From Candidatus Electronema halotolerans (GTDB lineage: Bacteria; Desulfobacterota; Desulfobulbia; Desulfobulbales; Desulfobulbaceae), in NCBI GenBank assembly GCA_942493095.1, contig OW818675.1, positions 2,850,001 through 2,882,000 on the forward strand: 32,000 bases of DNA, given 5' to 3'. Numbering within the stretch: position 1 is the stretch's first letter; every line of letters begins with the position of its first letter. Of this stretch, positions 2 to 28,913 are shown piece by piece. A model generated the notes under the pieces. The model had not been told where the DNA came from. It did no database searches and saw nothing but the letters and a program-made list of their open reading frames with translations. The position numbers and the translations under genes are program-made.

Positions 2-421
2 GCGGCCATTGGCGCGAAAATCGCCTTCCCGGACAAGACCGTCATCGACATTGCCGGTGACGGCTCCATCCAGATGAACATTCAGGAGCTTGCCACAGCC
101 AAGCAGTACGGCGCGGCAGTCAAGGTGGCGATTCTCAACAACAACTATCTGGGCATGGTCCGCCAGTGGCAGGAGCTGTTCTACAACAAACGCTATTCCG
201 GCACCCCGATGGAAGTCACGCCGGACTTTGTTGAGCTGGCCAAAGCGTATGGGGCAGTCGGTCTGCGGGCCAAAACCAAGAGCGAGGTTGAGCCGGTGAT
301 CAAAGAGGCTATGGCCATCAAAGATCAGGTGGTGATCATGGACTTTGCCATCAAGCGCGAAGAGTGTGTTTTCCCGATGATCCCGGCTGGACGGTCAACC
401 ACCGAGATGCTGCTGGCCTAA
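2..421 (+). CDS. ilvB: acetolactate synthase large (catalytic) subunit, C-terminal fragment; the 5' end lies outside the window
   Basis: The frame is open from nt 2. The translation AAIGAKIAFPDKTVIDIAGDGSIQMN...NNNYLGMVRQWQELFY has the ThDP-binding GDGS..MN / NN..LGMV motifs of ALS large subunits. The small-subunit gene follows 37 nt later. Confidence 0.9.
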   Translation, partial: AAIGAKIAFPDKTVIDIAGDGSIQMNIQELATAKQYGAAVKVAILNNNYLGMVRQWQELFYNKRYSGTPMEVTPDFVELAKAYGAVGLRAKTKSEVEPVIKEAMAIKDQVVIMDFAIKREECVFPMIPAGRSTTEMLLA

Positions 422-8426: not shown

Positions 8427-8927
8427 TTATCTGTCAAATTTTTCCTTCAGCGCGGCCAGCACATGAGCCGGAACCATGCCGCTGACATCGCCGCCCTGCC
8501 GGGCCGCATCTTTGATAATCGAGGAGCTGATATAAATCCAGCGGAAGCCGGTCATCAGGAAAACCGTCTCCACCCGCCGCTCCAGCTTGCGGTTCATCAG
8601 GGCAAGCTGGAGTTCGTAGTCAAAGTCAGAAACTGCCCGCAGACCGCGAATAATGGCGCAGGCGTTTTTTCGCATCGCGTAATCAACAATCAGACCGCTG
8701 GTCGTATCCACCTCCACCCGGTCATTGGCGGCAAAGCACTGCTGCATCAGGCTGATCCGCTCTTCCAGATTGAACAGGGGTGTTTTATTCGGGTTGATCG
8801 CAATGGTGACAATCACCCGCTCAAACATGCGCAGGGACCGGGTGATGATGTCCACATGGCCGTTGGTGATCGGATCAAAGGTGCCGGGATAAATGGCAAT
8901 ACCAGAACTGCGCAGTTTTTCAGTCAT
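8427..8927 (-). CDS. coaD: phosphopantetheine adenylyltransferase
   Basis: I place the start at ATG 8925-8927 (MTEKLRSSGIAIYPGTFDPITNGHVDII...). The conserved GTFDP.T.GH nucleotidyltransferase motif is present, and so is the conserved rsmD-coaD synteny. Confidence 0.9.
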   Translation of the reverse strand: MTEKLRSSGIAIYPGTFDPITNGHVDIITRSLRMFERVIVTIAINPNKTPLFNLEERISLMQQCFAANDRVEVDTTSGLIVDYAMRKNACAIIRGLRAVSDFDYELQLALMNRKLERRVETVFLMTGFRWIYISSSIIKDAARQGGDVSGMVPAHVLAALKEKFDR

Positions 8928-8937
8928 CGTTGTAAAG

Positions 8938-9510
8938 TCAGCTCTGTCGGTAGAGCCAGAGGCCGGTTTCCCCGTAGCTGCGCTGATCAGCGAGCCGCAG
9001 GCTGCCACAGTGCTCTGGCAGGCGAACGTTTTTACGCTCTTCCGCAATCAGCAGGCCGTCTTCAGCCAGCAGAGAGGATTGGGCAATTGCCTTCAGTGTA
9101 TGTTCCGCCAGACCTTGTTCGTAGGGCGGATCAAGAAAAATCAGCTCAAAATACAGCTCCGCAGGCAGCCTTCGGGACAGCTTGGCGATGCTGTCCGGCT
9201 TGGCAAGATCAAGCTGGAGCAGGGCCGCCTTGGCATCAACAAAGCTGCGTTTGAGCGTGTTCTGCATCAGTTCCAAAGCCTGCCGGGATTGATCAACAAA
9301 AACAACCGTTGCCGCGCCCCGGCTCAGGCTCTCCATGCCAAGGCTCCCAGTGCCTGCGTACAAATCCAGCACCCTACTGCCGGGAACCTTTGCCGCAATG
9401 ATGTTGAACAGGGCTTCGCGGACCCGGTCGCTGGTTGGCCGGATCAGCTTGCAGCCTGTTTTTGGTCCGCTGATGCTCCGGCCTTTAGCCGTGCCGCCGG
9501 TGATGCGCAT
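8938..9510 (-). CDS. rsmD: 16S rRNA (guanine966-N2)-methyltransferase
   Basis: I place the start at ATG 9508-9510 (MRITGGTAKGR...). Motifs RPTSDRVREALFN, LDLYAGTGSLGMESLSRGA and FLDPPY are present. Confidence 0.85.
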   Translation of the reverse strand: MRITGGTAKGRSISGPKTGCKLIRPTSDRVREALFNIIAAKVPGSRVLDLYAGTGSLGMESLSRGAATVVFVDQSRQALELMQNTLKRSFVDAKAALLQLDLAKPDSIAKLSRRLPAELYFELIFLDPPYEQGLAEHTLKAIAQSSLLAEDGLLIAEERKNVRLPEHCGSLRLADQRSYGETGLWLYRQS

Positions 9511-9515
9511 GATGA

Positions 9516-10259
9516 TCAGGCAGCGGGCGGCTGCCGTTTCCGCTGGATGAATTGATACAGGTCGAGCAGCGGCCCTGAGGCAGCATAGCAAAGGGCAGTG
9601 AAAAACAGGGTCACTGGCGGTTCAGAGGCTAAAAAGACCATTGCCAAAATAATGCCGACCACAGCCTGAAAACGTTTCTCGCGGGGGATGCTGATTTTTT
9701 TGAAACTCAGGTAGCGGTGCGCGGAAATCATCAGATAGGAGAGCAGATAGACCAGCAGGAGGATGGACAGGTGCTTGACCGTATCCTCTGCGCCGAGAAA
9801 GCGGAAGAACATCACCAAGGTGGCAATTGCCCCGGCTGCGGCTGGACAGGGCAGGCCGACAAAGTCATGGCTCTTCTGCTTCTCTGGCGGCTGCTCGGCA
9901 ATAGTGTTGAAGCGGGCCAGACGCAGGGAAGTGGCGGCAACATAGAGAAAGGCGGCCAGCCAGCCATAGCGTCCATAAGGCAGCAAGGCCCAGAGATAGG
10001 CGAGCAGGGCTGGGGCCACGCCAAAGGAGACCAGATCACAGAGTGAATCTAGCTGCATGCCAAAGTCGGAGGCAGAGCCGGTCATCCGGGCCACCCTGCC
10101 GTCAAGGCCGTCAAAGACTCCAGCGACAATGATGGCTGCCGCTGCCGGATAAAAGTCACCGTTGATCGAGGCGATGATTGAATAAAAGCCGCTGAACAGA
10201 CTGGCAAGGGTCAGGGTGCAGGGCAGAAGGAAAAAACGGTTCGGCTGTGGCAGTTCCAT
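9516..10259 (-). CDS. pssA: CDP-diacylglycerol--serine O-phosphatidyltransferase
   Basis: I place the start at ATG 10257-10259 (MELPQPNRFF...). The CDP-alcohol phosphatidyltransferase motif is DGLDGRVARMTGSASDFGMQLDSLCD. The protein is polytopic. Confidence 0.85.
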   Translation of the reverse strand: MELPQPNRFFLLPCTLTLASLFSGFYSIIASINGDFYPAAAAIIVAGVFDGLDGRVARMTGSASDFGMQLDSLCDLVSFGVAPALLAYLWALLPYGRYGWLAAFLYVAATSLRLARFNTIAEQPPEKQKSHDFVGLPCPAAAGAIATLVMFFRFLGAEDTVKHLSILLLVYLLSYLMISAHRYLSFKKISIPREKRFQAVVGIILAMVFLASEPPVTLFFTALCYAASGPLLDLYQFIQRKRQPPAA

Positions 10260-11525: not shown

Positions 11526-13167
11526 AACCACGGTGCTGGGGCGGCTTTTTGACTCGGTCAAGGATGTTGTTGATTATTATATCATTGCTGACACCGGCTC
11601 GACAGACGGCACACCAGAGTTCATCGGCAAAGAAATGCAGCGGCACGGCATTCCCGGCGAAGTGCTTCATCATAAATGGGTGAATTATGGCTTCAACCGG
11701 AATCAGGCCCTCCAGCATGTTTATGCAAAAAAATGGCAAGGATGGGTGCTGTTCATTGATGCGGACGAAGAGCTGGCCTGCTCTGACCCCCTGTTTCATG
11801 CCAAATTGGAACCCGGTGTCACGTACCAGCTGCAAAAGCACCACGGCTCGCTGCGCTACTCCTTGTCCAATTTGGTTGATGTCAGCAGGACGCAGTGGGA
11901 ATGGAAAGGCGTGGTGCATGAATATCTGGAACACGTTGGCGGCCCGGTTGCCTGCCGAGAACTGCATTCGGCATGGATTATCTATCATGCCGGAGAAGGA
12001 GTGCGCTCGCGGGGCGTGAGCGATGCGGAAAAGTATCTTGCGGATGCGGCTCTTTTGAAGGCGGAATGCAAGAAAAATCCAACCGATGCCAGAAGCAAGT
12101 TTTATCTCGCCCAGTCCTATGACAATGCCGGACGACTGGAACAGGCGCTGCGTCATTATCAACAGCGGGCGGCCATGCTTGGCTGGGATCAGGAAAATTT
12201 CGTGGCGCAACTGCGGGCCGCACGGCTCTGTGCGCAGCTCAAAAAATCTGATCAGGAAGTGGTCCGCGCCTTTCTCAAGGCGCATGAGATGTGTCCGCAG
12301 CGTGCCGAGCCGCTGCATGATCTGGCTTCGTATTATCGAAACAGGAAGCAATTCAGCCAAGCATACAACTATGCGAAAAAAGCAGCGGCGGTTCCGTTGC
12401 CAAGCGACACATTATTTGTAGAAAAGGATATTTACGACTGGCGCATCTTGGATGAAATAGGAGTGGCTGCGTACTGGACAGGCCGTTACCATGAAGCACG
12501 CAAGGCTTGTGAAACTGTTCTTGCGCGACAGGAACGCGGGGAAATTCGGCTCAACAAGGCAACAGTTCAACGGATTCAGGACAATCTGGGATTTTCTCTC
12601 AAAAAAGTTGAGGAACAGCAGGTCAAGGTGGACCGGAACAGCTCTGCGGAGCTGCTGCTTGGTTCTGGTTCACGCGCCAAGAAAGACCTGCTCCTTGCAG
12701 GGATGTCGGCAGAGTTTTCCAACCTTATCCGCCTTGATCAGAACAAAGATCATGAACCGGATCTGGTCTGGGACCTGCGCAGCCATCCGCTGCCTTTTGC
12801 TGACAGCTCTTTTGACGAAATTCATGCCTATCAGGTCCTCCAGCATCTGGCGCAGCAGGGTGATTACCAGTTTTTCTTTGCCGAGTTCAGCGAATACTGG
12901 CGCATCCTCAAGCCGGGCGGCCTGTTTCTCGCTTCAGTTCCAGACCGCTCTCTGGCTTGGGCTGATCCTGCGAACAAGCGAATTATTCAACCGGAAACTT
13001 TGGCATTTCTTGACCAAGATGAATACGCGCAACAGGTCGGCACAACCACTATGCGTGATTTCCGTTACCTGTACAAGGCCCACTTCAAGACTGCATATTC
13101 ACAGGTTAGTGAGGGTGTCTTTTACTTTGCGCTCAGAAAAGTTGTGCAGGAAAAGAAAGAACGATAA
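11485..13167 (+). CDS. multidomain protein: family-2 glycosyltransferase, TPR repeats, C-terminal class I SAM-methyltransferase-like domain
   Basis: I place the start at ATG 11485 (MKPEICLNMIVKNE...); ATG 11509 is an alternative. It overlaps the ARH gene by 41 nt (or 17 nt). GT2 signatures are MIVKNE, IIADTGSTDGT and FIDADEEL. The middle is TPR-like (KFYLAQSYDNAGRLEQALRHYQ...). The tail reads FDEIHAYQVLQHL...ILKPGGLFLASVP, like a methyltransferase. Confidence 0.75.
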   Translation: MKPEICLNMIVKNETTVLGRLFDSVKDVVDYYIIADTGSTDGTPEFIGKEMQRHGIPGEVLHHKWVNYGFNRNQALQHVYAKKWQGWVLFIDADEELACSDPLFHAKLEPGVTYQLQKHHGSLRYSLSNLVDVSRTQWEWKGVVHEYLEHVGGPVACRELHSAWIIYHAGEGVRSRGVSDAEKYLADAALLKAECKKNPTDARSKFYLAQSYDNAGRLEQALRHYQQRAAMLGWDQENFVAQLRAARLCAQLKKSDQEVVRAFLKAHEMCPQRAEPLHDLASYYRNRKQFSQAYNYAKKAAAVPLPSDTLFVEKDIYDWRILDEIGVAAYWTGRYHEARKACETVLARQERGEIRLNKATVQRIQDNLGFSLKKVEEQQVKVDRNSSAELLLGSGSRAKKDLLLAGMSAEFSNLIRLDQNKDHEPDLVWDLRSHPLPFADSSFDEIHAYQVLQHLAQQGDYQFFFAEFSEYWRILKPGGLFLASVPDRSLAWADPANKRIIQPETLAFLDQDEYAQQVGTTTMRDFRYLYKAHFKTAYSQVSEGVFYFALRKVVQEKKER

Positions 13168-16492: not shown

Positions 16493-16567
16493 GGCCCCAT
16501 CGTCTAGCGGTTAGGACAGCGGCCTCTCACGCCGTAAACAGGAGTTCGATTCTCCTTGGGGTCACCA
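16493..16567 (+). tRNA. tRNA-Glu (anticodon CUC), CCA encoded
   Basis: Manual cloverleaf. Acceptor GGCCCCA pairs with TGGGGTC. The D arm is GTCT-AGCGGTTA-GGAC. The anticodon stem GCGGC/GCCGT carries the loop CT-CTC-AC. The variable loop is 4 nt. The T arm is AGGAG-TTCGATT-CTCCT. Discriminator A plus CCA follow. Total 75 nt. Confidence 0.85.
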
Positions 16568-16614: not shown

Positions 16615-16787
16615 GTTCCCCACCATATTCCCCACATTTTTTCCTGTTTTCGCGGTATGGGGAGTCTGCTTTCTTGCCACAAAAAATATTTCTTGGGGTG
16701 GGGAATCGCGGGCTGAAGAGAAAAACGAGCTGACCCGGCAGCGGGCGAGCATGTCAGTCATCAAGCAGAACAATCCGGGCGGGATTC

Positions 16788-16844
16788 TCAAGGGCCAGAG
16801 GGAAGGTAGAGCGGCGGCGAGGTGTTGCTGACAGCTTCAGGCAT
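16788..16844 (-). pseudogene. 18-codon stub of a PIN-like (DUF3368-type) toxin gene, partner of the UPF0175 antitoxin
   Basis: Its ATG overlaps the antitoxin stop (ATGCCTGA). The translation MPEAVSNTSPPLYLPSGP* resembles the ..VVSDTSPLIYL.. N-terminus of DUF3368 PIN-like toxins, then terminates. No long frame continues downstream. Confidence 0.3.
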
Positions 16845-17070
16845 GTTTCGTCTCCAGCTCATCCAGTTCCGCCGCCAGAGGAAAGACCTTGAAGCGGTTC
16901 AGGTTGAGCAGGAATTCCACTCTGGACATGCCTGCAAGCTCGGCAGCCCGCCCGGATGACAGCCTGCCGGTCTCAAACAGTTTGATTGCCGCCAGCAGGA
17001 GAATTTCACGCCCAAAGGACTCGGCATCTGTTTTTTCCTCCAGCAGCACCTTGTCAGGGCAACCGACCAT
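16837..17070 (-). CDS. UPF0175-family (COG2886-like) putative antitoxin with HTH
   Basis: 77 aa. AAIKLFETGRLSSGRAAELAGMSRVEFLLNL matches the UPF0175 core (KLYE.GKLSLGKAAELAGMS..EF). It starts 2 nt after the Abi stop. Confidence 0.7.
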   Translation of the reverse strand: MVGCPDKVLLEEKTDAESFGREILLLAAIKLFETGRLSSGRAAELAGMSRVEFLLNLNRFKVFPLAAELDELETKHA

Positions 17071-18011: not shown

Positions 18012-19193
18012 CTACTCCTTACCATCCATCACTTTTTCGCAATGTAAAAAACAAGGGAGGCAGGGGACGGAGCATCTGAGCGTATCTTCTGAGCAGCCTG
18101 AGTCCTCTTTTGAAATAAGAACAGACACTTCTCCAAGTTTTTCTGACGACTGGCGGCAGCTCATGCTGTTCCGCATCCTTGTCGGCAACGTCGTCAAATC
18201 CGAAATTTTCAGTTTTTTTTCTCTTAGAAGCGGGTTCCGCATCCTGTCGCGGAGTCCGGCGAGTACGCACCAGTGCATGGCGACCGAGAGGATCAGCATC
18301 AGTCTGGCGATTCTGTCGGCGCGCTCCAGTTTTGTGTCCTCCAGACCGAACCCCCTGGTTTTGAAATCGCTGAACATGGCCTCGCATCCCCAGCGCATGC
18401 CGTAATCAAGTGTTTTATAATAATTTGGCTCAGTTCCTCCGACTGCCAGCAGCCAAGGCTCATCATGTCCCGGCTCCTGGAGAATGCTTAAATTTGTCTG
18501 AACCCGCTGTTCTGTCAGATAAATATTTTTCATAAGCAGTTCCTTGCGACCTTTCTTTTCAGCAGGAACAAGGTCCGCAAGAGATGTCTCATCGCCGGCC
18601 TCATTGAAAACTTTAAGATTTTCCTTGAGGCGGAGCCGATAATCCCAGCCGCTGCGGTGGCAGAATGCAATCAGCGGCGCTTGACCGTAAAAACGGTCGC
18701 CGAGCAGCAGCACTCTGCTGCCCTCTGGAAGGAATGATTTTATTTTTTCAAGAAGTTCCATGCAGATATCCGAGCCGATATTGCCCTGTCCTTTTCGGAC
18801 CCGCCATAGCAGAGGCAGGGCCCGACCGCCGAAGCGCAATGACAGCGAAAGAATGCCGAAACGGTCGGATAGCTGCGTCTGGTCAATGCACAGAATCAGC
18901 GTTTCTCCCGAAGCGGAGGCCGTCTCCAATGCCTGACGGATGAAAGGCCGCATCACATCATCATTGTCGATTGAGTCTGTGCTCAGGAAACGGCTTAACC
19001 ACTGATATCGCATGTCAATCCGTTCTGTTTCCAGCGGAAGGACAGCCGCCATGTCCATAGTATTGCAACTCTGAACTTCCAAAACCGCCGCCGCGCACAA
19101 GCTTAACTTGCGCAGAGGATTCCTGTTAATTCCGGGCAAAACGTCCCGCAGGCCGGACGAGATTTCCTCTGCCAGATGACTGATCGTGCTCAT
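18012..19193 (-). CDS. IS4-family DDE transposase
   Basis: 393 aa. The Y-x2-R-x3-E-x6-K signature is present (YGMRWGCEAMFSDFK), along with LLGDRFY. The stop codon lies in or just beyond the terminal repeat. Confidence 0.8.
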   Translation of the reverse strand: MSTISHLAEEISSGLRDVLPGINRNPLRKLSLCAAAVLEVQSCNTMDMAAVLPLETERIDMRYQWLSRFLSTDSIDNDDVMRPFIRQALETASASGETLILCIDQTQLSDRFGILSLSLRFGGRALPLLWRVRKGQGNIGSDICMELLEKIKSFLPEGSRVLLLGDRFYGQAPLIAFCHRSGWDYRLRLKENLKVFNEAGDETSLADLVPAEKKGRKELLMKNIYLTEQRVQTNLSILQEPGHDEPWLLAVGGTEPNYYKTLDYGMRWGCEAMFSDFKTRGFGLEDTKLERADRIARLMLILSVAMHWCVLAGLRDRMRNPLLREKKLKISDLTTLPTRMRNSMSCRQSSEKLGEVSVLISKEDSGCSEDTLRCSVPCLPCFLHCEKVMDGKE

Positions 19194-19282: not shown

Positions 19283-19345
19283 TAACTACTCAGGCATCCG
19301 CCAAGCCTCTTGACAAAATCAACAGGTAAAGATTATGCTGCCGTT

Positions 19346-20818
19346 ATGAATTTCAGTGTTCCTAGTGAAAAAGAAGTCCGTGCTGCATACGCAGAAGGCG
19401 AAGAAGCGGTCGTCGCCCTGTTTAGCAGTATAACTGCGCAGGTTGAAAACCTCGCCGCTCAGTCAGCCAAGCAGTCCGAGATATTGAAGGATTTGCAGGC
19501 CCGGCTGTCGAAAAACAGTCGGAACAGCGGAAAACCGCCTTCGAGCGATGGATACGGTAAAGCGAAGCGAACGGAAAGTCTGAGAGAGTCCGGCAGGAAG
19601 CCGAACGGCGGCCAGCCAGGTCATCAAGGGCATACTCTTGAGCGGTCTGCGGCGCCGGATTCTACGGAGAGGTATAAACCCGAGGAATGCGCGGCTTGCA
19701 AAATGTCGCTTGCGGATGTCGTCGCTGTCGGAGAGGAGGAACGGCAGGTTTATGATATTCCGGCGATTCGGATTGAAGTGACCTCGCATCGAGCGGAAAT
19801 AAAAATCTGTCCCGGCTGCGGCACGGAAAACAGAGGCAAATTCCCGGAAAACGTCGGACAGGGCATCCGTTACGGCACGGGGGTAAAAACTTGGGCGGCA
19901 TATTTCGCGAACCAGCATCATATTCCGCTTGAACGGGCTGCGCAGATTATCGAAGACCTGACCGGGCATTCCGTCTCCGAGGGTTCGCTGCTGAAGGCAT
20001 CGGAAGAGCTTTGCGGATGCGTGCGTCCTTCAACGGAAGCAGTCGAAAAACTGCTCATGAATACCGATGTGTTACATGCCGATGAAAGCGGAGTCCGCGT
20101 GAAAGGGAAGCTGCACTGGCTGCATGTCGCTTCGACGAACTGCCTCACCCATTATTCGGTGCATGAAAAACGGGGAAAAGAGGCGATGGACGCAGCGGGA
20201 ATCCTTGGAAAGTTCACAGGAACAGCGACGCATGATCATTGGAAATCGTACTTCAGCTATGAAAACTGCGGTCATGCGCTGTGCAATGCGCATCATCTCC
20301 GGGAACTCAAGTTCATAGAAAAACAGTACGGACAAGTTTGGGCCGACGAGATGGCCGAGCTGCTGCTTGAAATAAAAGGCGCGGCTGAAAAGCTGAAGCC
20401 GGATCGGGACGGCTTCACGCCGGAGAAGATCGAAGAATTTGAGCGGCGGTATGATGAAATCGTCCGACGGGGTTTTGCGGACAATCCGTTCACTCCGCCT
20501 AATGAGAAAAAACGAGGACGGGTGAAGAAGACTCCGCCGCTCAATTTGCTGACACGGATGCGTGATTACAGGGCGGAGACCCTCGCATTCATGTATGATT
20601 TCCGGGTTCCGTTCGACAACAACGCGGCGGAAAGAGATGTGCGGATGATCAAGGTCAAGCAGAAGGTTTCCGGCTGCTTCCGAACACTTGAGGGGGCAGA
20701 ACGATTCGCCTGTATCCGGGGATATATCTCCACGGTCCGTAAAAATTCAAGAAACATTTTTGAAGCGATCAAAGATGCTTTCCTTGGAAGTCCTTTTATC
20801 CCCGATGCCGCAGTATAA
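19346..20818 (+). CDS. IS66-family transposase (TnpC-type)
   Basis: An N-terminal coiled coil is followed by KNSRNSGKPPSSDGYGK, a CxxC...CxxC zinc-finger region (CAACK, CPGCG) and HADESG..V.GK.HWLHV, all typical of IS66 TnpC. The ORF track uses TTG 19310. I prefer ATG 19346. Confidence 0.85.
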   Translation: MNFSVPSEKEVRAAYAEGEEAVVALFSSITAQVENLAAQSAKQSEILKDLQARLSKNSRNSGKPPSSDGYGKAKRTESLRESGRKPNGGQPGHQGHTLERSAAPDSTERYKPEECAACKMSLADVVAVGEEERQVYDIPAIRIEVTSHRAEIKICPGCGTENRGKFPENVGQGIRYGTGVKTWAAYFANQHHIPLERAAQIIEDLTGHSVSEGSLLKASEELCGCVRPSTEAVEKLLMNTDVLHADESGVRVKGKLHWLHVASTNCLTHYSVHEKRGKEAMDAAGILGKFTGTATHDHWKSYFSYENCGHALCNAHHLRELKFIEKQYGQVWADEMAELLLEIKGAAEKLKPDRDGFTPEKIEEFERRYDEIVRRGFADNPFTPPNEKKRGRVKKTPPLNLLTRMRDYRAETLAFMYDFRVPFDNNAAERDVRMIKVKQKVSGCFRTLEGAERFACIRGYISTVRKNSRNIFEAIKDAFLGSPFIPDAAV

Positions 20819-21395: not shown

Positions 21396-24300
21396 TCATC
21401 TTGCCGCTGCATTCATCCGAGCATAGACCTTGTTCCGCATCCATGTCCTGACCACGCCGCCGAACTCTTCATTCCCCAATATCTTTTCAAAGAGCTGCTG
21501 GTTCTGCTCCATGCGTTCAACAAGCATTCTCTCGAACAGCTCATCAAAGGGATATTTGAAGGTGTCAACGCTGTTGGCCTCAGCCTGTGTCTGCAAGGTC
21601 TGATCCTGCATCAGGCCAGTTTCAATCTGATCAAAGAAGAGCCGGTCGGTTTCATTCAGCTCCGTGCCGAACCGCTCATTGAGCAGCTCGATGATTTCAG
21701 AGAGGGCCGCCTTTTCCTCCTTGTCCCTCTTGATTCCCGCTTCAGTTATTCCGTCCAGCTCTCCATCCGTGTTTGCCGCAAGCTCTATAGCCCCTTCTTT
21801 GATCTTTTGCAGGCGGTAGTATTCCAAGGCAATTTCATCAGTCACCCGCATCTGTTCGGACAAATCGCCCTTGGGCAGCTTGCTGCATAACAGGCGGGCA
21901 TAGGCAAAAAACTTCTCAAAGTCCGGCTCATGGAAGGGCATAATCTGGGCCATGAACGCATACAGCTTGCACCAAGTGCGCAGCCCCTTCCTGAATTCGT
22001 CCTTTTCCTCTTGGCTTGCTATGGCCGTATAGCGGTCAACAGCCGGATCAAGGCAGGCGTTCAGCTCGCCCTGCGTCCTGCTGCTCATCCGGGCGGCAGG
22101 CTGAAAGTAAATGCGGGCGAACGCCTCAACTTCAGACTGCCAGTAAATCTGCTTGGCATCCAGCTTGCCTTTCAGGTCATAGAGATGATTCGGGGACGGC
22201 TCATCTTTGCCTGCGGTCAGCTCATAGTAGGGCTGAAAGGATTGCAGAATGGTCTCCCGGTCATTGGCAAAGTCCAAGACAAAGGTGTCTTCCTTGCCCG
22301 GACAGGTGCGGTTGAGGCGGGAAAGAGTCTGCACCGCCTTGACCCCGGCCAGCTTCTTGTCCACGTACATGGTGTGCAGGAGCGGCTGATCAAAGCCGGT
22401 CTGAAACTTGTCGGCGCAGATGAGAATTTTGTATTCATCGCGTTCAAAGAGTGTCGGCAGCTCACTTTCACGGCAGCCGGTGAGCTGCGGTTCAGTCACG
22501 CCGTCCGGGGAATCATCGTCAATTACCTTGCCGGAAAAGGCCACCAGAACCTTGATATCGTGACAGTGCTTCTCGGCAAGCTGCCGTTTGAACTCATCAA
22601 AATAGCGTTTGGCATGAAGCCGGGAGCCAGTCACCAGCATGGCCTTGGCTCTGCCGCCTATTTGCTTGCTGACCACTTCCCGGAAATGCCTGATGATGAT
22701 TTCCGTTTTCTGGGCCAGATTATGCGGATGCAACGAGATGAAGCGGCCTATGGCCTGCGCTGTTTTCTTTTTGTTGAGCTGCGGATCATCTTCAATGGCT
22801 TTGGAGAGCCGGTAATACAGCTCATAGGTGGTGTAATGCGCCAGCACGTCGAGAATGAAGCCCTCTTCAATCGCCTGCCGCATCGAATAGAGGTGAAAGG
22901 GCTGCGGCCTGCCTTGGCTGTCCTTCCGGCCAAAGACCTCCAAGGTCTTAAATTTCGGCGTGGCGGTGAACGCGAAAAAAGACAGGTTTTTCTGTTGGCC
23001 CCGGACAGCGCAGGCTTTCTCCACCATGTCCCGGATTTCATCTTCCGGGTCATAGTCAGAGGCTTCCGCCTGCTCCGCTTCCTCCAAGGATTTGGCCATG
23101 AGCGCGGCTTTCATTTTATTGCTGGCCTCGCCGCCTTGGGAGCTGTGGGCCTCATCAATGAGCACGGCGTAGCGGCGTTCCGGCAGGTCTTTGACCGCCT
23201 CAAGGACAAAGGGAAACTTCTGCAAGGTGGTGATGATGACCGGCACGCAGCGTTGCAGAGCCTCGGCAAGCTGGCTGCTGCCCTTGTCGATTCGCTGCAC
23301 CACGCCGGTTTTATGCTCGAACTGATAGACCGTGTTTTGCAACTGCTGATCCAAGACCCTGCGGTCAGTAACCAAGATCACCGCGTCAAAGATGCGCTCA
23401 TCTGCGGCATTGTGCAGGCTGGCCAGCCGGTAGGCCAGCCATGCGATGGTGTTGCTTTTGCCTGATCCGGCGGAATGCTGAATCAGATAATTTTTGCCCG
23501 CGCCCTGCTCCCGGACATCTGCGGTTATTTTCCGCACTGCATCAAGCTGATGAAAGCGGGGAAAGATCAGCTTTTCCTTTTTCACAGTGCGGTTGTCCAC
23601 CTGCTCTTCTTCAACATGCAGATGAGCAAATCGCTGCAAGATTTCCAGCAGGCTGTCTTTGGCAAGAATTTCCTCCCAGAGATAGGCGGTTTTGCAGCCT
23701 TCCCGCGTCGGCGGATTGCCTTTGCCGTGGTCACAGCCGCGATTGAAGGGCAGCCAGAAGGTCTGGGAGCCGTTCAGCCGGGTGGTCATCCAAACTTCAT
23801 CTGCATCAACCGCGAAATACACCAAGGCCCGTTTTTTGAAGGCAAAGAGCAGTTCCTTGCTGTCGCGGGTGCTGGCGTACTGGCGTTTGGCGTGGTTGGC
23901 ATTCTGACCGGTGAGCTGGTTTTTCAGCTCGACAGTGGCCACCGGCACCCCGTTCAGAGAGAGCACCAGATCAACGGAGTTCTTGTTTTTGCTGCTGTAA
24001 TAGACCTGCCTGCACACGGCAAGACGGTTCTGGCGGTACAGCTCGGCAGTGTCCGGGTTCAGGCCGCTTTCCGGCTTGAAACAGGCCATGCGGAATCGGA
24101 CTCCGTACTCAGTGAAGCCGTTGCGGAGAACGTCGAGAGAGCCGCGCAAGTCCATTTCCTGACAGAGGCGGTGAATCACCTTGCCTGCTGCCGCGTCGCC
24201 GTGAATGGCGGCAAGACGCGCCCAAGCGTGCGGCTGGGTGCATTGCAGGAAGGCAAGCAGCTCCTGCTTGAACAGGCCGGTTTCCGGGTCATACTCCGCA

Positions 24301-24413
24301 GACTGGCCCTGCGCATAGCCGCCGCGTTCAGTCAGGCTGGCGACTATGGCGGATTCAAAAGACGCTTCACTGGTGATGGAGATTGGAGAATTGACAGTTG
24401 ACAATGTGTTCAC
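21396..24413 (-). CDS. hsdR: type I restriction enzyme, R subunit
   Basis: 1005 aa. It has an N-terminal nuclease region, helicase motif I (HSAGSGKSNT) and a DEAH box (LIDEAHSSQ), plus downstream SF2 motifs. The annotated start is GTG 24411-24413. TTG at 24402-24404 has better spacing from a GAGGGG. Confidence 0.9.
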   Translation of the reverse strand: MNTLSTVNSPISITSEASFESAIVASLTERGGYAQGQSAEYDPETGLFKQELLAFLQCTQPHAWARLAAIHGDAAAGKVIHRLCQEMDLRGSLDVLRNGFTEYGVRFRMACFKPESGLNPDTAELYRQNRLAVCRQVYYSSKNKNSVDLVLSLNGVPVATVELKNQLTGQNANHAKRQYASTRDSKELLFAFKKRALVYFAVDADEVWMTTRLNGSQTFWLPFNRGCDHGKGNPPTREGCKTAYLWEEILAKDSLLEILQRFAHLHVEEEQVDNRTVKKEKLIFPRFHQLDAVRKITADVREQGAGKNYLIQHSAGSGKSNTIAWLAYRLASLHNAADERIFDAVILVTDRRVLDQQLQNTVYQFEHKTGVVQRIDKGSSQLAEALQRCVPVIITTLQKFPFVLEAVKDLPERRYAVLIDEAHSSQGGEASNKMKAALMAKSLEEAEQAEASDYDPEDEIRDMVEKACAVRGQQKNLSFFAFTATPKFKTLEVFGRKDSQGRPQPFHLYSMRQAIEEGFILDVLAHYTTYELYYRLSKAIEDDPQLNKKKTAQAIGRFISLHPHNLAQKTEIIIRHFREVVSKQIGGRAKAMLVTGSRLHAKRYFDEFKRQLAEKHCHDIKVLVAFSGKVIDDDSPDGVTEPQLTGCRESELPTLFERDEYKILICADKFQTGFDQPLLHTMYVDKKLAGVKAVQTLSRLNRTCPGKEDTFVLDFANDRETILQSFQPYYELTAGKDEPSPNHLYDLKGKLDAKQIYWQSEVEAFARIYFQPAARMSSRTQGELNACLDPAVDRYTAIASQEEKDEFRKGLRTWCKLYAFMAQIMPFHEPDFEKFFAYARLLCSKLPKGDLSEQMRVTDEIALEYYRLQKIKEGAIELAANTDGELDGITEAGIKRDKEEKAALSEIIELLNERFGTELNETDRLFFDQIETGLMQDQTLQTQAEANSVDTFKYPFDELFERMLVERMEQNQQLFEKILGNEEFGGVVRTWMRNKVYARMNAAAR

Positions 24414-24483
24414 CCCTCGCTGCGGTCGAACTTGATAACCAAGGTGCTCTTGGCAGGCCTTGGGTTAGGCGTTACGCAGTTGA

Positions 24484-24561
24484 GCATGGTTTCGATTCAA
24501 TCAAATGCATGCATTCGTGCCAATCAAATGCATGGTTTCGATCCGATCAAATGCATGCATT
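24484..24561. repeat. direct repeats in the hsdS-hsdR spacer (2 x 32 bp; the 12-mer ATCAAATGCATG occurs 3 times)
   Basis: GCATGGTTTCGATTCAATCAAATGCATGCATT (24484-24515) and GCATGGTTTCGATCCGATCAAATGCATGCATT (24530-24561) match at 30/32. ATCAAATGCATG sits at 24500, 24523 and 24546, a 23-bp period. It contains the palindrome ATGCAT. Confidence 0.85.
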
Positions 24562-24567
24562 TGTATG

Positions 24568-25257
24568 TTACGAATGCGTAGAGTTGTGTTGTACGGAGGC
24601 ATAGTCTCTTACGTCAATCTTGCCAGTCACGGCTTCGGAAATTAATGCGGTGCGGTATTCCTTGAGCAGCTCGATTTGCCGCTCTTTCTTGGCAATCAGG
24701 CTGTCTATTTCTGCGGTCTTGCGGTCAAGGAAAGCGGCAATGGTGGTTTGTTCTTGGAGACAAGGGATTGCACAATAAAAAGATTTATATTTCTCAACAG
24801 AAAGGGATGGAACAGCCCCAGGATTAACAAACCAATCAAAATCAATAATGCTATGTAGGTAGAAATTAAAATTCCAATTCAACTTATCTGGTTCTATTCC
24901 AATACAATTATTATCAATAATACACGATTTTAAGATTATTTTTCTATGATTTTTCCTTAAAGATTCACCGATCTTAGCCGTTACAAGTGAATTCACAGGA
25001 ATAAGATTCCAATTATGCTTTTCAATGGTATCTTTAGAAACATAATTATTCGCTTTTTCAACATATTTTTCATTGCCGTTAATATCGCTAACCTTTAAAA
25101 AAGGTATATCTCCATCAAGATTACCTTGCTCATCATGAGGAAAGCCATTTCCTGAATGATCTTTTACAAGGTATTTTACCTTTACAACTGCCCACTCTTC
25201 AGGTAATTCACCAATCCACTCAACCCCTGAATCTTTGTATTTCGGATAAGGCTTCAT
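24568..25257 (-). CDS. hsdS: type I restriction-modification specificity subunit, half-size (single target-recognition domain)
   Basis: 229 aa. The N-terminus is the typical GVEWIGELPEEW..VKVKYL. There is one AT-rich TRD and then one conserved helical region (LQEQTTIAAFLDRKTAEIDSLIAKKERQIELLKEYRTALISEAVTGKIDVR). The start overlaps the hsdM stop (ATGA). Confidence 0.85.
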   Translation of the reverse strand: MKPYPKYKDSGVEWIGELPEEWAVVKVKYLVKDHSGNGFPHDEQGNLDGDIPFLKVSDINGNEKYVEKANNYVSKDTIEKHNWNLIPVNSLVTAKIGESLRKNHRKIILKSCIIDNNCIGIEPDKLNWNFNFYLHSIIDFDWFVNPGAVPSLSVEKYKSFYCAIPCLQEQTTIAAFLDRKTAEIDSLIAKKERQIELLKEYRTALISEAVTGKIDVRDYASVQHNSTHS

Positions 25258-27056
25258 ATCAGCACCTCCTTTTCCAACTCCGCCGCTTCTTCTTCCAGCT
25301 TAAGAATATCCGCCCGGATTTCATCTAACGAGCGCAGCGGCTTGAACTCGTAGAAATACTTGGTGAAATTAATTTCATAGCCGGTCTTGGTCTTGCTTTC
25401 ATCAATCCACGCATCCGGCAGATGGGGCAGCACTTCGCGGGCAAAATATTCCTCAATCGTCTGCGGCACCAGCTTGCCGCGCTCATCCTTGCGCAGAAAA
25501 GGAATGTTCTCATAATCCCGGAGCTTGGGATCAGGTTTGAGCCTGCCCTGCCGGTCTTTTGCCGCCTTGCCCTTGGCATTCTGCAAAGGCTGCTCAACCG
25601 TGACCCGCCAATAGCCAAAAAAGGCGTTGGGATAGATTTTGCAGAACTCGTTCTCCTGAAAGTCGCCGTACAGATTGGCAATAAAACCAATGCCTTTTTC
25701 CGTGCCGTTCTCGACAATGGCCTTGCGCTTGTTGCCCAAGCTGCGGGGCATCTTCTGCCAGAAGCGGTTGAAAGGCAGACTGCCCTCTTTGACGGCTTCC
25801 TCATCCTTGGCCCCGGTCGCATTGACAAGCTGCACTTTGCCCTTGCGTTCCCCGCTCTTGTGATTGGACAAAATCCAAATATAGGTTGCAATGCCGGTGT
25901 TGTAGAAAAGCTGATCCGGCAGGGCTATGACCGCTTCCAGCCAGTCGTTTTCAATAATCCATTTGCGAATGTCGCTTTCTCCGCTGCCAGCCTGTCCAGT
26001 GAAGAGCGGCGAGCCGTTGAAGACAATCCCGATACGGCTGCCGTCGGGCTTCATTTTGGCCAGCATGTGTTGCAGAAAGAGGAACGCGCCGTCATTGATC
26101 CGGGGCAGGCCCGCGCCAAAGCGTCCGGCGTGGCCTTTGTTCTCATGCTCCGCCTTGATGACCTTCTGGGCTTTTTTCCAATCTACACCAAACGGCGGAT
26201 TGGACAGCATATAGTCGAACCGCTCGCCGTCCAGCCCGTCTGCGGTGAAGGTGTTGCCGAACTTGATCCGGGCCGGGTCTTGGCCCTTGATGAGCATGTC
26301 TGACTTGCAGACCGCATAGGATTCCGGGTTGATCTCCTGCCCGAAGACCTCCAGCTTGGCCTTGGGGTTGAGGTCGCGCAGATAGCTTTCCGCCACAGAC
26401 AACATGCCGCCCGTGCCGCAGGCCGGGTCATAGAGCGTTTTCACCGCGCCCTCTGTGGTCAGTGAATTTCTGTCCGTGATGAAGAGCAAATCCACCATCA
26501 GCCGGATGACTTCGCGGGGCGTGAAGTGCTCTCCTGCGGTCTCATTGGACAGCTCGGCAAACTTGCGGATCAGCTCTTCAAAGACATAGCCCATTTCCAT
26601 GCTGTCCATGCCGGAAAGGTCAATTTCAGCAAAGGTTTTGACTGTCTGAAAGAGCAAATCCGCCTTGGGGTCGTCCATCCGGTCAATTTGGGCCTCGAAG
26701 CTGAAATATTCCAGTATCTCCCGCGCTTCCGCAGAAAAGCCGTTGATATAGCTGCGCAAGTTGGCGGCGATATGATCCGGCTCGGCAACCAGCTTGGCAA
26801 AGTCAAAGGGGCTGCGATTGTGAAACCTGAACCCGGCAGCTTTGTTCAGCACCGCATCCTTGGCTTTGTCAGACATGCTCTCGACCTTGGGCAACTGGTT
26901 CAGCACGGCCTGCTTGGTCGGGGCAAGCACAGAGTCTAACCGCCGCAAAACCGTCATAGGCAGAATGACCTTGCCATAATCTGCCTGCTTGTAGTCGCCG
27001 CGCAGCAGGTCGGCTGCCTGCCAGATGAGATTTGCCTTTTCTTGGAAATTGTTCAT
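25254..27056 (-). CDS. hsdM: type I restriction-modification N6-adenine DNA methyltransferase subunit
   Basis: 600 aa. It has the N-terminal HsdM domain (LWQAADLLRGDYKQADYGKVILPMTVLRRLD), the AdoMet motif (DPACGTGGML) and the catalytic NPPFG. Confidence 0.9.
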   Translation of the reverse strand: MNNFQEKANLIWQAADLLRGDYKQADYGKVILPMTVLRRLDSVLAPTKQAVLNQLPKVESMSDKAKDAVLNKAAGFRFHNRSPFDFAKLVAEPDHIAANLRSYINGFSAEAREILEYFSFEAQIDRMDDPKADLLFQTVKTFAEIDLSGMDSMEMGYVFEELIRKFAELSNETAGEHFTPREVIRLMVDLLFITDRNSLTTEGAVKTLYDPACGTGGMLSVAESYLRDLNPKAKLEVFGQEINPESYAVCKSDMLIKGQDPARIKFGNTFTADGLDGERFDYMLSNPPFGVDWKKAQKVIKAEHENKGHAGRFGAGLPRINDGAFLFLQHMLAKMKPDGSRIGIVFNGSPLFTGQAGSGESDIRKWIIENDWLEAVIALPDQLFYNTGIATYIWILSNHKSGERKGKVQLVNATGAKDEEAVKEGSLPFNRFWQKMPRSLGNKRKAIVENGTEKGIGFIANLYGDFQENEFCKIYPNAFFGYWRVTVEQPLQNAKGKAAKDRQGRLKPDPKLRDYENIPFLRKDERGKLVPQTIEEYFAREVLPHLPDAWIDESKTKTGYEINFTKYFYEFKPLRSLDEIRADILKLEEEAAELEKEVLI

Positions 27057-27257
27057 GCTGATCTTGAGCCGTTGTCGGGGAAGGGTTGATCATTCGGACA
27101 GAAGGGGTTTTAAACACTGCCGCACTGTTTGGCAAGGATTATTTGCAGGCCCGGTCTGCCGCTTGCAACCCGCAGGTTTGTCTGCTCCTTCCGGGTTTAT
27201 GGCCGACAGTCCGGGCATTTCATACGGGGGCTTGCGCTCTCCGTCCTACCCCTGCGC

Positions 27258-27517
27258 CTGATCGTTGATTTGTTCTGCGGCAGCAAAAACACTGCTAAAG
27301 TTGCTAAACTTGCTAACGTTGCTGATATTATTCAACATCCGTTTGCTAACTTTTTGCTAACTTTTTGCGAACACTGCTCACGCCCGCCGCTGATCGTTGA
27401 TTTGTTCTGCGGAAGCAAAAACACTGCTAAAGTTGCTAAACTTGCTAACGTTGCTGATATTATTCAACATCCGTTTGCTAACCTTTTGCTAACTTTTGCT
27501 AACTTTTTGCGGAACAG
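27258..27517. repeat. two tandem ~120-bp direct repeats (period 132 bp), each built from TTGCTAA-like iterons
   Basis: Cores 27258-27350 and 27390-27482 are identical at 92/93 positions. The copies extend to about 27374 and 27517, and copy 2 has one extra ~10-bp unit. TTGCTAA or one-mismatch variants occur 7 and 8 times: at 9-bp spacing (27292/27301/27310/27319) and then at 10-11-bp spacing (27343/27354/27365). Confidence 0.9.
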
Positions 27518-27627
27518 CATCGTTTCAGGAAAATGATGCAAAAATTACTTGGTTGCCCCAGCCCGGCGGGGGATGTTACAGTAAAGGAAGACGCGGGGAG
27601 ATAACTGACAGGATGGAGGAAGAAATC

Positions 27628-27780
27628 ATGGCAACCAAAATCAAAGAAACTCCTGTGCTGAAAGGAGAGGCGGCCCGCCGTTTCCTGAAAACTATCCGGG
27701 AAAATGAACAGAAAAAGGTGCCGAAAGAAGACTATGAGCGGGCAAAAGAGGCGTACCGGAATTTTAAGGTTGTCTGCTGA
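27628..27780 (+). CDS. small charged hypothetical protein (50 aa)
   Basis: ATG 27628 is preceded by GGAGGA with 6-nt spacing. The sequence is MATKIKETPVLKGEAARRFLKTIRENEQKKVPKEDYERAKEAYRNFKVVC. ATG 27613 is an alternative start. I cannot assign a family with confidence. Confidence 0.5.
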   Translation: MATKIKETPVLKGEAARRFLKTIRENEQKKVPKEDYERAKEAYRNFKVVC

Positions 27781-27813
27781 GGAATCATATCTACAATTAT
27801 TCCGTTAAACTCC

Positions 27814-28557
27814 ATGTCTATTTGTTTAGTTATAGCAGGTTGGGTTGTTTGTTATTTTATAATTACATTAACTGCAACATATATTGCTGACCCGCTAATT
27901 TCCTATATTGAAGATGGTTCTCTGGCAAGATGGATAAGAAATGTTTGGATATATATTAAGAAACCGGTTTGTAAATATCGTTGTTATTTGATTTGTTCGA
28001 CAGGAATTCCTGCTCTTTCCTTTTTTATTTATGGATATAGCAGTAAGAGTCTTTTGTTTTCTGGTGGAATATTTCAAGCGATAGGAACTTTCGTGGCCGC
28101 TCACAGTATATATACTACCGCAAAAGAAAAATTTAACAAAAATCCTATAAGAGAATTGATGCAATCCTTTCCAAGGATAAAACCAAAGGTTCGTCCATGC
28201 CCAACCTGTACGGGAATACAGGAAACACGCGGGGTAGCTTCTCTTCGTCTTGATATCATTGAAGACAATAAGAATTCATCTATAGATGATAGATTGTCAA
28301 TTATTTATGCAAATCAAGAAAAAATAAAAGAAACAGTTAATTATTTATGCAAGAGAGAAGAGGAATATATGTTTTTAGAAGAAAAAATAGATGAAGAAAC
28401 AGAAAATAAAATTCGTGAAGTTGCAAGAAACATTAAGCTTTTCCTTGAGGATATACATCTTTCTGATTTCACCCCAACTATCATTGGTCTGTTTTGGATT
28501 GCATTTGGCGTAATTCTTGCCACTATCGGGTCATTGTTGCCCGCCGCCGCGCCTTAA
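27814..28557 (+). CDS. hypothetical membrane protein: 3 N-terminal TM helices, ~120-aa charged/coiled-coil region, C-terminal TM helix
   Basis: 247-aa ORF in a strongly AT-rich block, 33 nt after the small ORF. Hydrophobic segments are at about aa 2-24, 56-75, 79-99 and 221-242. The middle is E/K-rich (KREEEYMFLEEKIDEETENKIREVARNIKLF). There is no obvious SD, and I recognise no family. Confidence 0.6.
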   Translation: MSICLVIAGWVVCYFIITLTATYIADPLISYIEDGSLARWIRNVWIYIKKPVCKYRCYLICSTGIPALSFFIYGYSSKSLLFSGGIFQAIGTFVAAHSIYTTAKEKFNKNPIRELMQSFPRIKPKVRPCPTCTGIQETRGVASLRLDIIEDNKNSSIDDRLSIIYANQEKIKETVNYLCKREEEYMFLEEKIDEETENKIREVARNIKLFLEDIHLSDFTPTIIGLFWIAFGVILATIGSLLPAAAP

Positions 28558-28872
28558 TCTCCTGCCATTTCCGCCAGTCATCCGGGTTGAAAATCTCGTT
28601 GACGTGATGCTCCAGCTCTTCATCCGATGCACCCAATTCAAGCGCGGTCTCAAAAGGTGACTGCCCATCCTGCCACCAACGATATTTTGGCTCACAATCG
28701 CAGGGAATCCGCAGCCTGCCCTGATCGTCAAGATAAGGGGCTTTAGGCCGGGCGGCGTGCAGCTCCAGGTCACAAACTGCGGAAAGGAGACAAGCACCGC
28801 TCCGGCGGCCTCCAAGGGATTTGTCCTTGCCTTTCGCAGGGCAATGACGGTACTATGTTGTTTTCTCATCAT
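28523..28872 (-). CDS. uncertain ORF or possible decayed gene upstream of the cytochrome gene (two competing frames)
   Basis: The listed 113-aa frame (28531-28872) becomes R/G/S/T-rich after about 35 aa. A second frame is open for 109 codons (28526-28852). It reads ...PKAPYLDDQGRLRIPCDCEPKYRWWQDGQSPFETALELGASDEELEHHVNEIFNPDDWRKWQEI... and looks more protein-like, but has no ATG/GTG/TTG before codon ~72. Confidence 0.3.
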
Positions 28873-28913
28873 TGCCGCAAAAGAGATTGTCCAACCTCAA
28901 GGAGAATGCAACA

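Follow-up and report, generated by a model that had tools for sequence, protein, structure and literature searches.

Small genes placed in front of an effector gene are a familiar kind of cargo in bacterial defence islands. The gene prrC is embedded in the type Ic restriction-modification (R-M) locus EcoprrI, and its product is activated by the Stp peptide of phage T4. On the side of mobile elements, the crr region of the P4 satellite consists of two direct repeats of ~120 bp that carry octamer iterons. Finally, partner-swapping toxin-antitoxin networks with membrane-depolarising toxins have been reported for PanA/PanT and for RosmerTA, with its toxin RmrT (PMC10440598). The locus described here lies in a stretch of 32,000 nt (the window) from the cable bacterium Candidatus Electronema halotolerans, and consists of a 50-residue gene followed by a gene for a 247-residue membrane and coiled-coil protein, whose product is 100% identical to the hypothetical protein GCAAIG_12850 of this organism. 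The membrane protein could be a stand-alone defence or exclusion effector whose gene was swapped in downstream of an antitoxin-family gene that stayed in place, a tentative reading to which we give a probability of roughly 0.4, and the most economical reading of the locus as a whole would be a chimeric accessory module in a decayed integrative element of the integrase/primase type, resembling a P4 satellite or a phage-inducible chromosomal island (PICI).

Both open reading frames (ORFs) are genuine genes. The small one is judged so because its ratio of nonsynonymous to synonymous substitutions (dN/dS) is 0.04-0.06, as measured in the membrane-linked state at a dS of ~0.2-0.5, and the longer one because it has homologues in three phyla and is still open at ~15% nucleotide divergence, where only 0.7% of neutral simulations stay open. 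They follow each other on the same strand, with the close, operon-like spacing of type II toxin-antitoxin genes. An earlier reading of this DNA, the first-pass annotation, had described a small ORF with a good Shine-Dalgarno (SD) sequence, an AT-rich ORF 33 nt later, and two products of no named family, and all of this holds. The start codon of the small gene is preceded, at a distance of 7 nt, by a GGAGG, and the G+C content of the 247-residue gene is 34.4% (0.25 at third codon positions, GC3), as against 47.7% (GC3 0.53) for the small gene and 55-59% for the flanking hsdM and cytochrome genes. No SD-like sequence precedes the ATG of the membrane gene (the preceding bases are ...CCGTTAAACTCC), and in the 33-nt gap there is no promoter call above chance, the scan for sigma-70 promoters and terminators being at chance level. 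The 5′ leader of the small gene (27552-27627) is almost unchanged among four loci; with a folding z-score of -1.5 it is not a structured RNA, and an Rfam search of positions 26900-28900 gave no match. Neither of the two proteins has a match in Pfam, NCBIfam, PADLOC or PHROGs.

The predicted architecture of the membrane protein is also the one initially proposed, with three N-terminal transmembrane (TM) helices, a helical middle rich in E and K, and a C-terminal TM helix. Hydropathy gives strong TM segments at residues 1-21 (Kyte-Doolittle 2.4) and 223-241 (2.3), together with two weaker ones at 57-75 and 81-99 (both ~1.3), which align with clear TM helices of the relatives. In the AlphaFold2 model, a disordered stretch (121-156) leads into a 60-residue helix (157-216) that contains 16 D/E and 10 K/R residues. 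The close relatives recovered by a word-indexed search with this protein numbered only four (Electronema-type, 72-73% identity), plus one fragment, and an exhaustive profile search recovered 159 family representatives at E<1e-3, mostly of 205-230 residues. An alignment of 40 of these sequences defines a shared plan, which runs from a strongly hydrophobic TM helix through a second, glycine-rich one (GxxLQxxGxxxAIxGL), the basic motif WxKxFPxWK and a stretch that varies to ExRxxxIxxN, a long helix, the motif LHTxD and, at the C-terminus, a last TM helix (GLxWxxxG). An additional N-terminal TM helix, present in the Electronema proteins and a few relatives, brings the family to three or four. The motifs and the C-terminal helix are kept across phyla, and in the 247-residue protein they appear as GxxxQxxG, WxKxFPxWK and the invariant helix DFTPTIIGLxWIAxGVILATIGSL. 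Since a basic stretch follows the glycine-rich helix, the coiled coil would be cytoplasmic according to the positive-inside rule. When searched against Pfam, the 40 members match no family beyond coiled-coil noise, and against PADLOC-DB v2 they give scattered matches of the coiled-coil type, each in one or two of the 40 and none better than E 3e-4. The Foldseek matches of the 247-residue protein in the PDB all have E above 1. In a 412-residue library protein (P0091), a family member is joined, by fusion or misassembly, to one more TM helix, followed by a domain of ~150 residues at the C-terminus. At the 3′ end of the window gene, the last six codons (28538-28557; LPAAAP, GC-rich) overlap the 3′ end of a convergent gene remnant, and the allele of Electronema sp. 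JM (locus L001) ends six codons earlier, at 241 residues.

The genomic contexts of the family were compared in 14 loci, of which ~12 are independent. The contigs were searched with a closer subset of the family, the full 40-sequence alignment having no stretch conserved enough for this purpose. Type I R-M genes adjoin the membrane gene in eight of the 14 loci (window, L001, L012, L014, L015, L016, L050 and L052). In three of them the membrane gene begins shortly after hsdS: 7-17 nt in L014 (Shivajiella) and L016 (a metagenome contig), where the order is hsdR-SLFN-hsdM-hsdS, and 1 nt in L052 (a metagenome contig). L014 additionally carries a reverse transcriptase and GmrSD. In L012 (Oleiphilus), hsdM/hsdR and an AAA_22 gene precede the membrane gene, which is followed by SIR2 and HerA genes, and in L015 (Algoriphagus) and L050 (a metagenome contig) the membrane gene has hsdR as a neighbour, within a satellite-like element that contains Terminase_2 and HTH_17 genes, as well as a D5_N primase in L015. 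L001 contains, in this order, HigBA, an hsdM with MNT/HEPN genes, the pair, a 256-residue gene, a Toprim/DUF3987 primase gene and an integrase gene. As for the window, the first-pass annotation had placed the pair in a tRNA-linked island, divergent from a type I R-M operon and accompanied by an Abi gene and a toxin-antitoxin remnant; the operon, the tRNA-Glu gene and an Abi_2 gene in the same island are indeed there, but no toxin-antitoxin remnant is recognisable beside the pair. An all-against-all comparison of neighbours found type I R-M subunits as the only recurrent ones, and no other conserved partner of the family. These subunits come from unrelated Hsd families (the HsdM proteins of the window and L001 share 27% identity), and in the hsdS-linked subclade the linkage is kept while the membrane protein falls to 58% identity and HsdS to 36%. 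The family is therefore recurrently found within a few genes of known defence systems, which is the pattern that guilt by association relies on, and across phyla it would most economically be described as cargo of defence islands that stands alone and has a marked preference for type I R-M operons.

The remaining loci are more varied. In L009 (Ca. Thiodiazotropha) the membrane gene is followed, after 61 nt, by a gene (8712-9530) for a 272-residue protein that matches the PADLOC candidate PDC-S64 (E 8e-25) and, weakly, DUF3644, and the two form an insertion with rph on one side and an ADH gene on the other. The membrane gene lies between housekeeping genes in L010 (Methylococcaceae) and L013 (Sedimenticola), near an ISL3 transposase in L011 (Sedimenticolaceae), after ORF6N and HTH_3 genes in the metagenome contig L048, and after a trypsin-like protease gene and a Terminase_2 fragment in another one (L053). 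Outside Electronema, no locus has the small gene beside the membrane gene (at least 10 loci, examined by tblastn and by profile search with E up to 0.1).

The small gene leads to a different set of neighbours. Its relatives form 35 protein clusters with 70-96% identity, found in Electrothrix, Electronema, Desulfobulbus sp. TB and phage-like contigs, and remoter ones (43-67% identity) occur in metagenomes. The N-terminus, MATxIKETP, is almost invariant, and the AlphaFold2 model (mean predicted local distance difference test score, pLDDT, of 72) shows helices at residues 14-29 and 33-49 after flexible residues 1-13. In 13 loci, which include nearly all of the most distant relatives having a downstream gene, the next gene downstream encodes a GNAT protein of 170-183 residues, either 2-3 nt away or overlapping by 8 nt. 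Three of these GNATs were confirmed by Pfam, and their best matches among solved structures are the toxins KacT, TacT and AtaT. Given this tightly coupled neighbour, the small-gene family occupies the antitoxin position of a GNAT toxin-antitoxin system. The protein itself does not resemble the antitoxins of those toxins: 21 members of the family gave no Pfam match at E up to 10, DUF1778 included, hhalign against TacA, KacA and AtaR returned a probability of 1.2%, with no detectable similarity to DUF1778, and Foldseek against the PDB found nothing. The idea that the small protein corresponds to the C-terminal, toxin-binding half of DUF1778 was thus discarded, as hhalign recovers the alignment made by eye but at 1% probability.

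The same small gene stands before several unrelated genes. Small proteins 90-96% identical to that of the window precede the 247-residue gene (window, L001, L017, L046 and L047), a GNAT gene (L019 and L020), a 293-residue gene (L022) or a 287-residue gene (L030 and L031), and relatives at 59-64% identity precede genes of 230 (L028) and 108 residues (L026), so that the family has at least five downstream partners besides the 247-residue gene. These alternative genes (L030 129-992, 287 aa; L031, 283 aa; L022 486-1367, 293 aa; L028 4168-4860, 230 aa; L026 1742-2068, 108 aa) have no significant Pfam match, nor any match in PADLOC or PHROGs among those tested, and are further unnamed candidates for cargo or effector genes. 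A resemblance of the 287-residue partner of L030 and L031 to Abi-alpha was considered, but neither Pfam nor PADLOC confirmed it. The low G+C content of the membrane gene and the absence of an SD sequence mark it as a probable later arrival at a position usually held by a GNAT.

Two further settings of the small gene may be mentioned. Phage or IMG/VR contigs (L006/L044, L008, L042, L043 and L045) encode homologues with 60-84% identity, with neither GNAT nor membrane gene; such proteins may mimic antitoxins or, as small DNA-binding proteins, play a part in the phage. An 859-residue ORF that resembles an intein-containing large terminase directly follows the small gene of L045, which overlaps its start. 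A small-gene/GNAT pair of Electrothrix gigas (L002 7521-8697) lies ~400 nt after tRNA-Arg(TCG) and before a MauJ-like gene, forming a minimal tRNA-linked islet with no iterons.

According to the swapped-in effector reading, the GNAT gene of the ancestor of these Electronema elements would have been replaced by a low-G+C gene acquired from elsewhere, encoding a member of the unnamed inner-membrane family, and the small gene would have been retained from a GNAT toxin-antitoxin cassette that a satellite-like element carried in its cargo region. The membrane protein would be the working part and would act alone, because its relatives must do so. Its three or four TM helices with small-xxx-small motifs would lie in the membrane, with the cytoplasmic coiled coil of ~60 residues tethered at both ends. 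In response to a phage-related cue the protein would oligomerise, and the oligomer would either permeabilise the membrane, as in abortive infection, or block the entry of DNA, as in exclusion; we infer these two outcomes from the TM helices with their small-xxx-small motifs and from the doubly tethered coiled coil. The small protein would more likely control expression, or serve another function of the element, than neutralise this partner one-to-one. Selection is compatible with such a role for the membrane protein. Its dN/dS between alleles is 0.36-1.24 (linker 1.06, coiled coil 0.67, C-terminal TM helix 0.24), which, together with the open ORF, indicates a gene that is maintained but fast-evolving, as fits either an arms-race protein or loosely constrained helical segments.

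Several observations weigh against this reading. The context sample is small and has no genome-wide background, and in four loci (L010, L011, L013 and L048) the neighbours are housekeeping genes or include no recognised defence gene. With a mean pLDDT of 63, the model that AlphaFold2 gives for the membrane protein is weak, and sequence and profile searches of the PDB were empty, with no homology to any characterised effector. Its high dN/dS could partly reflect relaxed constraint. For the small protein, a possible ribbon-helix-helix similarity stays below threshold, the best sequence match in the PDB being the Arc repressor (E 0.034; hhalign probability 17%). The iteron units found upstream of the small gene in the window are absent from small genes outside a subset of the cable-bacterial loci. 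Moreover, the pair is kept in all five contigs with close membrane-gene homologues, with the small gene 33-35 nt upstream and the leader almost invariant, which favours a working pair, and the small gene has remained under strong purifying selection after the swap.

These last two points favour a classical type II toxin-antitoxin or abortive-infection pair, in which the membrane protein would be a constitutive, membrane-depolarising toxin, bound and neutralised by a 50-residue protein that also represses the operon, and freed when this labile protein is lost on infection. The antitoxin position of the small family before KacT-like toxins and the location in a defence island point the same way, and both partner swapping and membrane-depolarising toxins are documented for other antitoxin families (PMC10440598). 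However, outside Electronema the membrane family always occurs without the small gene, and often no small ORF of any kind lies upstream, and small proteins that differ by four residues or fewer stand before unrelated proteins, which is hard to reconcile with neutralisation by specific protein-protein contact. Besides, no similarity to the DUF1778 antitoxins is detectable. An in-frame TGA (CGG GAA to TGA GAA, two substitutions) interrupts the small gene at codon 24 in L046 (1386-1538) and L047 (2-121), beside an intact 247-residue ORF, which argues against an indispensable antitoxin, albeit in a single lineage known from metagenome assemblies that may both come from the same sample. The solitary membrane family, the swapped partners and this stop codon thus argue against the view that the membrane protein is constitutively toxic and depends on the small protein as its specific, obligate neutraliser, and a conserved two-gene unit is not supported at the family level. 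The initial proposal of a toxin-antitoxin or Abi-type module therefore survives in part: the antitoxin position of the small family, the link of the membrane family to defence and R-M genes (in eight of the 14 loci) and the presence of the pair in all close relatives agree with it, but the lone family members, the exchanged partners and the interrupted small gene do not. In any case, a classical pair seems less likely than a swapped-in stand-alone effector, and we regard it as unlikely.

A second alternative dispenses with defence altogether. The module would be leftover cargo of a dead mobile element under relaxed constraint, or the membrane protein would serve the element itself, as a tether for replication or partition or in a lysis or holin-like release, or else would belong to general envelope physiology. 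The island of the window is indeed a truncated remnant, as the primase and integrase of L001 are missing from it and no direct repeat of the 3′ end of the tRNA-Glu gene (attachment site, att) was found at its right end, which is deleted. In some stretches of the membrane gene dN/dS comes close to 1, a family gene is frameshifted in L050/L051, some members lie between housekeeping genes, and the L001 pair sits between two origin-like units beside a primase gene. On the contrary, dead cargo would hardly keep an open ORF against the neutral expectation already mentioned, nor the family motifs and the C-terminal TM helix across phyla, and the association with R-M genes and defence islands was judged, from the same small and background-free sample, to be far above that of a random gene. 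A role as a lysis gene is also argued against by the viral contigs, where no member of the family was found with the search patterns used. A tblastn search of annotated phage and plasmid collections gave no match. Taken together, a non-defence role looks unlikely.

The strong R-M linkage raises a third alternative, namely that type I R-M systems use the membrane protein as an accessory, either a PrrC-like guard effector that the Hsd complex keeps silent and that is freed when a phage anti-restriction protein attacks this complex, or a membrane anchor that places the enzyme at sites of DNA entry, the small gene being incidental. It would explain the genes that begin 1-17 nt after hsdS, a linkage that outlasts the divergence of both proteins, and R-M genes of unrelated Hsd families as sole recurrent neighbours, and prrC in EcoprrI provides a precedent. 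Nevertheless, R-M genes are missing from the neighbourhood in about half of the loci, the window gene is divergent from hsdM, separated from it by a 570-bp spacer and provided with its own upstream gene, and defence cargo of all kinds gathers at type I R-M loci, so that adjacency need not mean cooperation; this makes the accessory role rather improbable. Less probable still is a combination of these ideas, in which an unrecognised type I R-M accessory effector (a PrrC-like permeabilising guard, or a tether at DNA entry) would have been captured in cable bacteria behind a minimal 50-residue GNAT-type antitoxin that gates its expression.

The features of the island are listed in the following table.

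Features of the island in the window (positions of the forward strand of the window, with the evidence for each)
Feature	Position	Strand	Evidence or remark
tRNA-Glu(CTC)	16493-16567	+	ARAGORN; left end of island
IS4/DDE_Tnp_1-like transposase gene	18012-19193	-	between Abi_2 gene and hsdR
IS66-family transposase gene	19310-20818	+	between Abi_2 gene and hsdR
Type I R-M operon	21396-27056	-	PADLOC and Pfam matches; divergent from the pair
hsdR	21396-24413	-	PADLOC/Pfam
Three 23-bp tandem repeats (GCATGGTTTCGATTCAATCAAAT-type)	24484-24564		hsdR-hsdS gap
hsdS (229 aa, 37% G+C)	24568-25257	-	PADLOC/Pfam
hsdM	25254-27056	-	PADLOC/Pfam
First iteron-bearing unit	27248-27365	+	tandem with the second (span 27248-27497), ~132 bp start to start
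Second iteron-bearing unit	27380-27497	+	
Shine-Dalgarno sequence of small gene	27616-27620	+	read directly from the sequence
Small gene (50 aa)	27628-27780	+	ORF reading
Membrane/coiled-coil gene (247 aa)	27814-28557	+	ORF reading
3′ remnant (last 75 codons) of 256-aa element gene	28541-28765	-	tblastn to residues 181-255 of the L001 protein, 97% identity

The array upstream of the small gene, already singled out as unusual in the first-pass annotation, stands up well: there are seven exact TTGCTAAC boxes where 0.76 would be expected by chance. Each of the two units, which are 95% identical over 118 nt, has TTGCTAA-type boxes in two sets, one of 9-bp boxes (CTGCTAAA/GTTGCTAAA/CTTGCTAAC) and one of 10-11-bp boxes (TTTTGCTAAC), with a short AT-rich spacer (GATATTATTCAACAT) between them, an arrangement that resembles the architecture of PICI origins (PMC6092414). 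The copy number is one unit in L001, two in the window and ten boxes in L017. In L001, one unit lies upstream of the small gene and another, inverted, directly 3′ of the Toprim/DUF3987 primase gene; between the two members of this inverted pair (9593-9734 and 11630-11738) lie the small gene, the membrane gene and the 256-residue gene. Because the boxes are restricted to a subset of cable-bacterial loci, they are better read as origin sites than as an operator, and the units would most likely be origin-type binding sites for the primase of the element. A conserved operator for the small protein, considered for the TTGCTAAC boxes, was rejected, the boxes being absent from most small-gene loci.

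The extent of the deletion can be followed in the alignment with L001. Positions 27390-28766 of the window align with this locus at 84.5% identity, and the homology stops at 28766, inside the gene for the 256-residue protein, whose remnant overlaps the last codons of the 247-residue gene and marks the deleted right end of the island. The two transposase genes fit a decaying island as well. At the left end, window positions 16617-16878, after the tRNA-Glu gene, are 90-96% identical to L001 2691-3059, after tRNA-Arg(TCT) of Electronema sp. JM, so that related islands sit beside different tRNA genes. In the R-M operon, the short hsdS (a single Methylase_S stretch) with its low G+C content may be a half-size or recombined specificity gene.

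Should the membrane family be a defence effector, it would add to the defence repertoire an unnamed family of three phyla, absent from Pfam and PADLOC, and would open the testable question of whether type I R-M operons contain membrane-acting back-up or guard components. The 50-residue family, for its part, would be a minimal antitoxin for GNAT toxins of the KacT/TacT type, unlike DUF1778. The near-identical copies of the small gene before unrelated cargo, together with the homologues in cable-bacterial phages, offer a compact case of module swapping in mobile elements. To our knowledge, cable bacteria can be neither cultured nor genetically manipulated yet, so that little has been learned of their defence and mobile-element biology.

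When compared with the described systems, both proteins fall outside every named family, and the link between the membrane family and type I R-M genes matches no system in the libraries searched. The closest parallels for the small gene are the KacAT, TacAT and AtaRT systems (type II, GNAT with ribbon-helix-helix antitoxins), as the small family is tightly coupled upstream of GNATs that match their toxins. In the window, however, a gene for an unrelated membrane protein stands in place of the missing GNAT gene, and the DUF1778 antitoxins are ~90 residues long against the 50 of the small protein, which has no significant similarity to TacA, KacA, AtaR or the Pfam DUF1778 family. The PanA/PanT and RosmerTA networks share with this locus an antitoxin-type gene joined to several unrelated downstream genes, a defence-linked setting, and at least one partner (here the 247-residue protein) that is a predicted membrane protein. 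They differ in that the present locus has neither a Panacea or Rosmer domain nor any other known antitoxin domain, the small proteins barely change between partners, and the membrane family is mostly solitary elsewhere.

For the membrane protein, the comparison with embedded effectors of the PrrC/EcoprrI type rests on an accessory gene that is found again and again within hsd operons or next to them, across different Hsd families, whereas the family described here has no ATPase or anticodon-nuclease domain, is predicted to be membrane-embedded with a coiled coil, and is not universally linked to R-M genes. A predicted multi-TM protein of ~200-250 residues in defence islands also recalls RexB, KwaA of the Kiwa system, the SLATT and 2TM effectors of CBASS and retrons, and the Abi membrane proteins of lactococci, but none of the 40 members has a significant PADLOC or Pfam match, and the order of elements is distinct, with two TM helices followed by a cytoplasmic coiled coil and a C-terminal TM helix. 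Finally, the element itself compares with the P4 satellite and the PICIs. Although the window has no primase or integrase, and its boxes differ in sequence from those of P4 and PICI origins, they likewise form two sets of octamers around an AT-rich spacer, in units repeated as copies of ~120-130 bp, one of which lies, in L001 only, directly 3′ of a P4-alpha-like primase gene.

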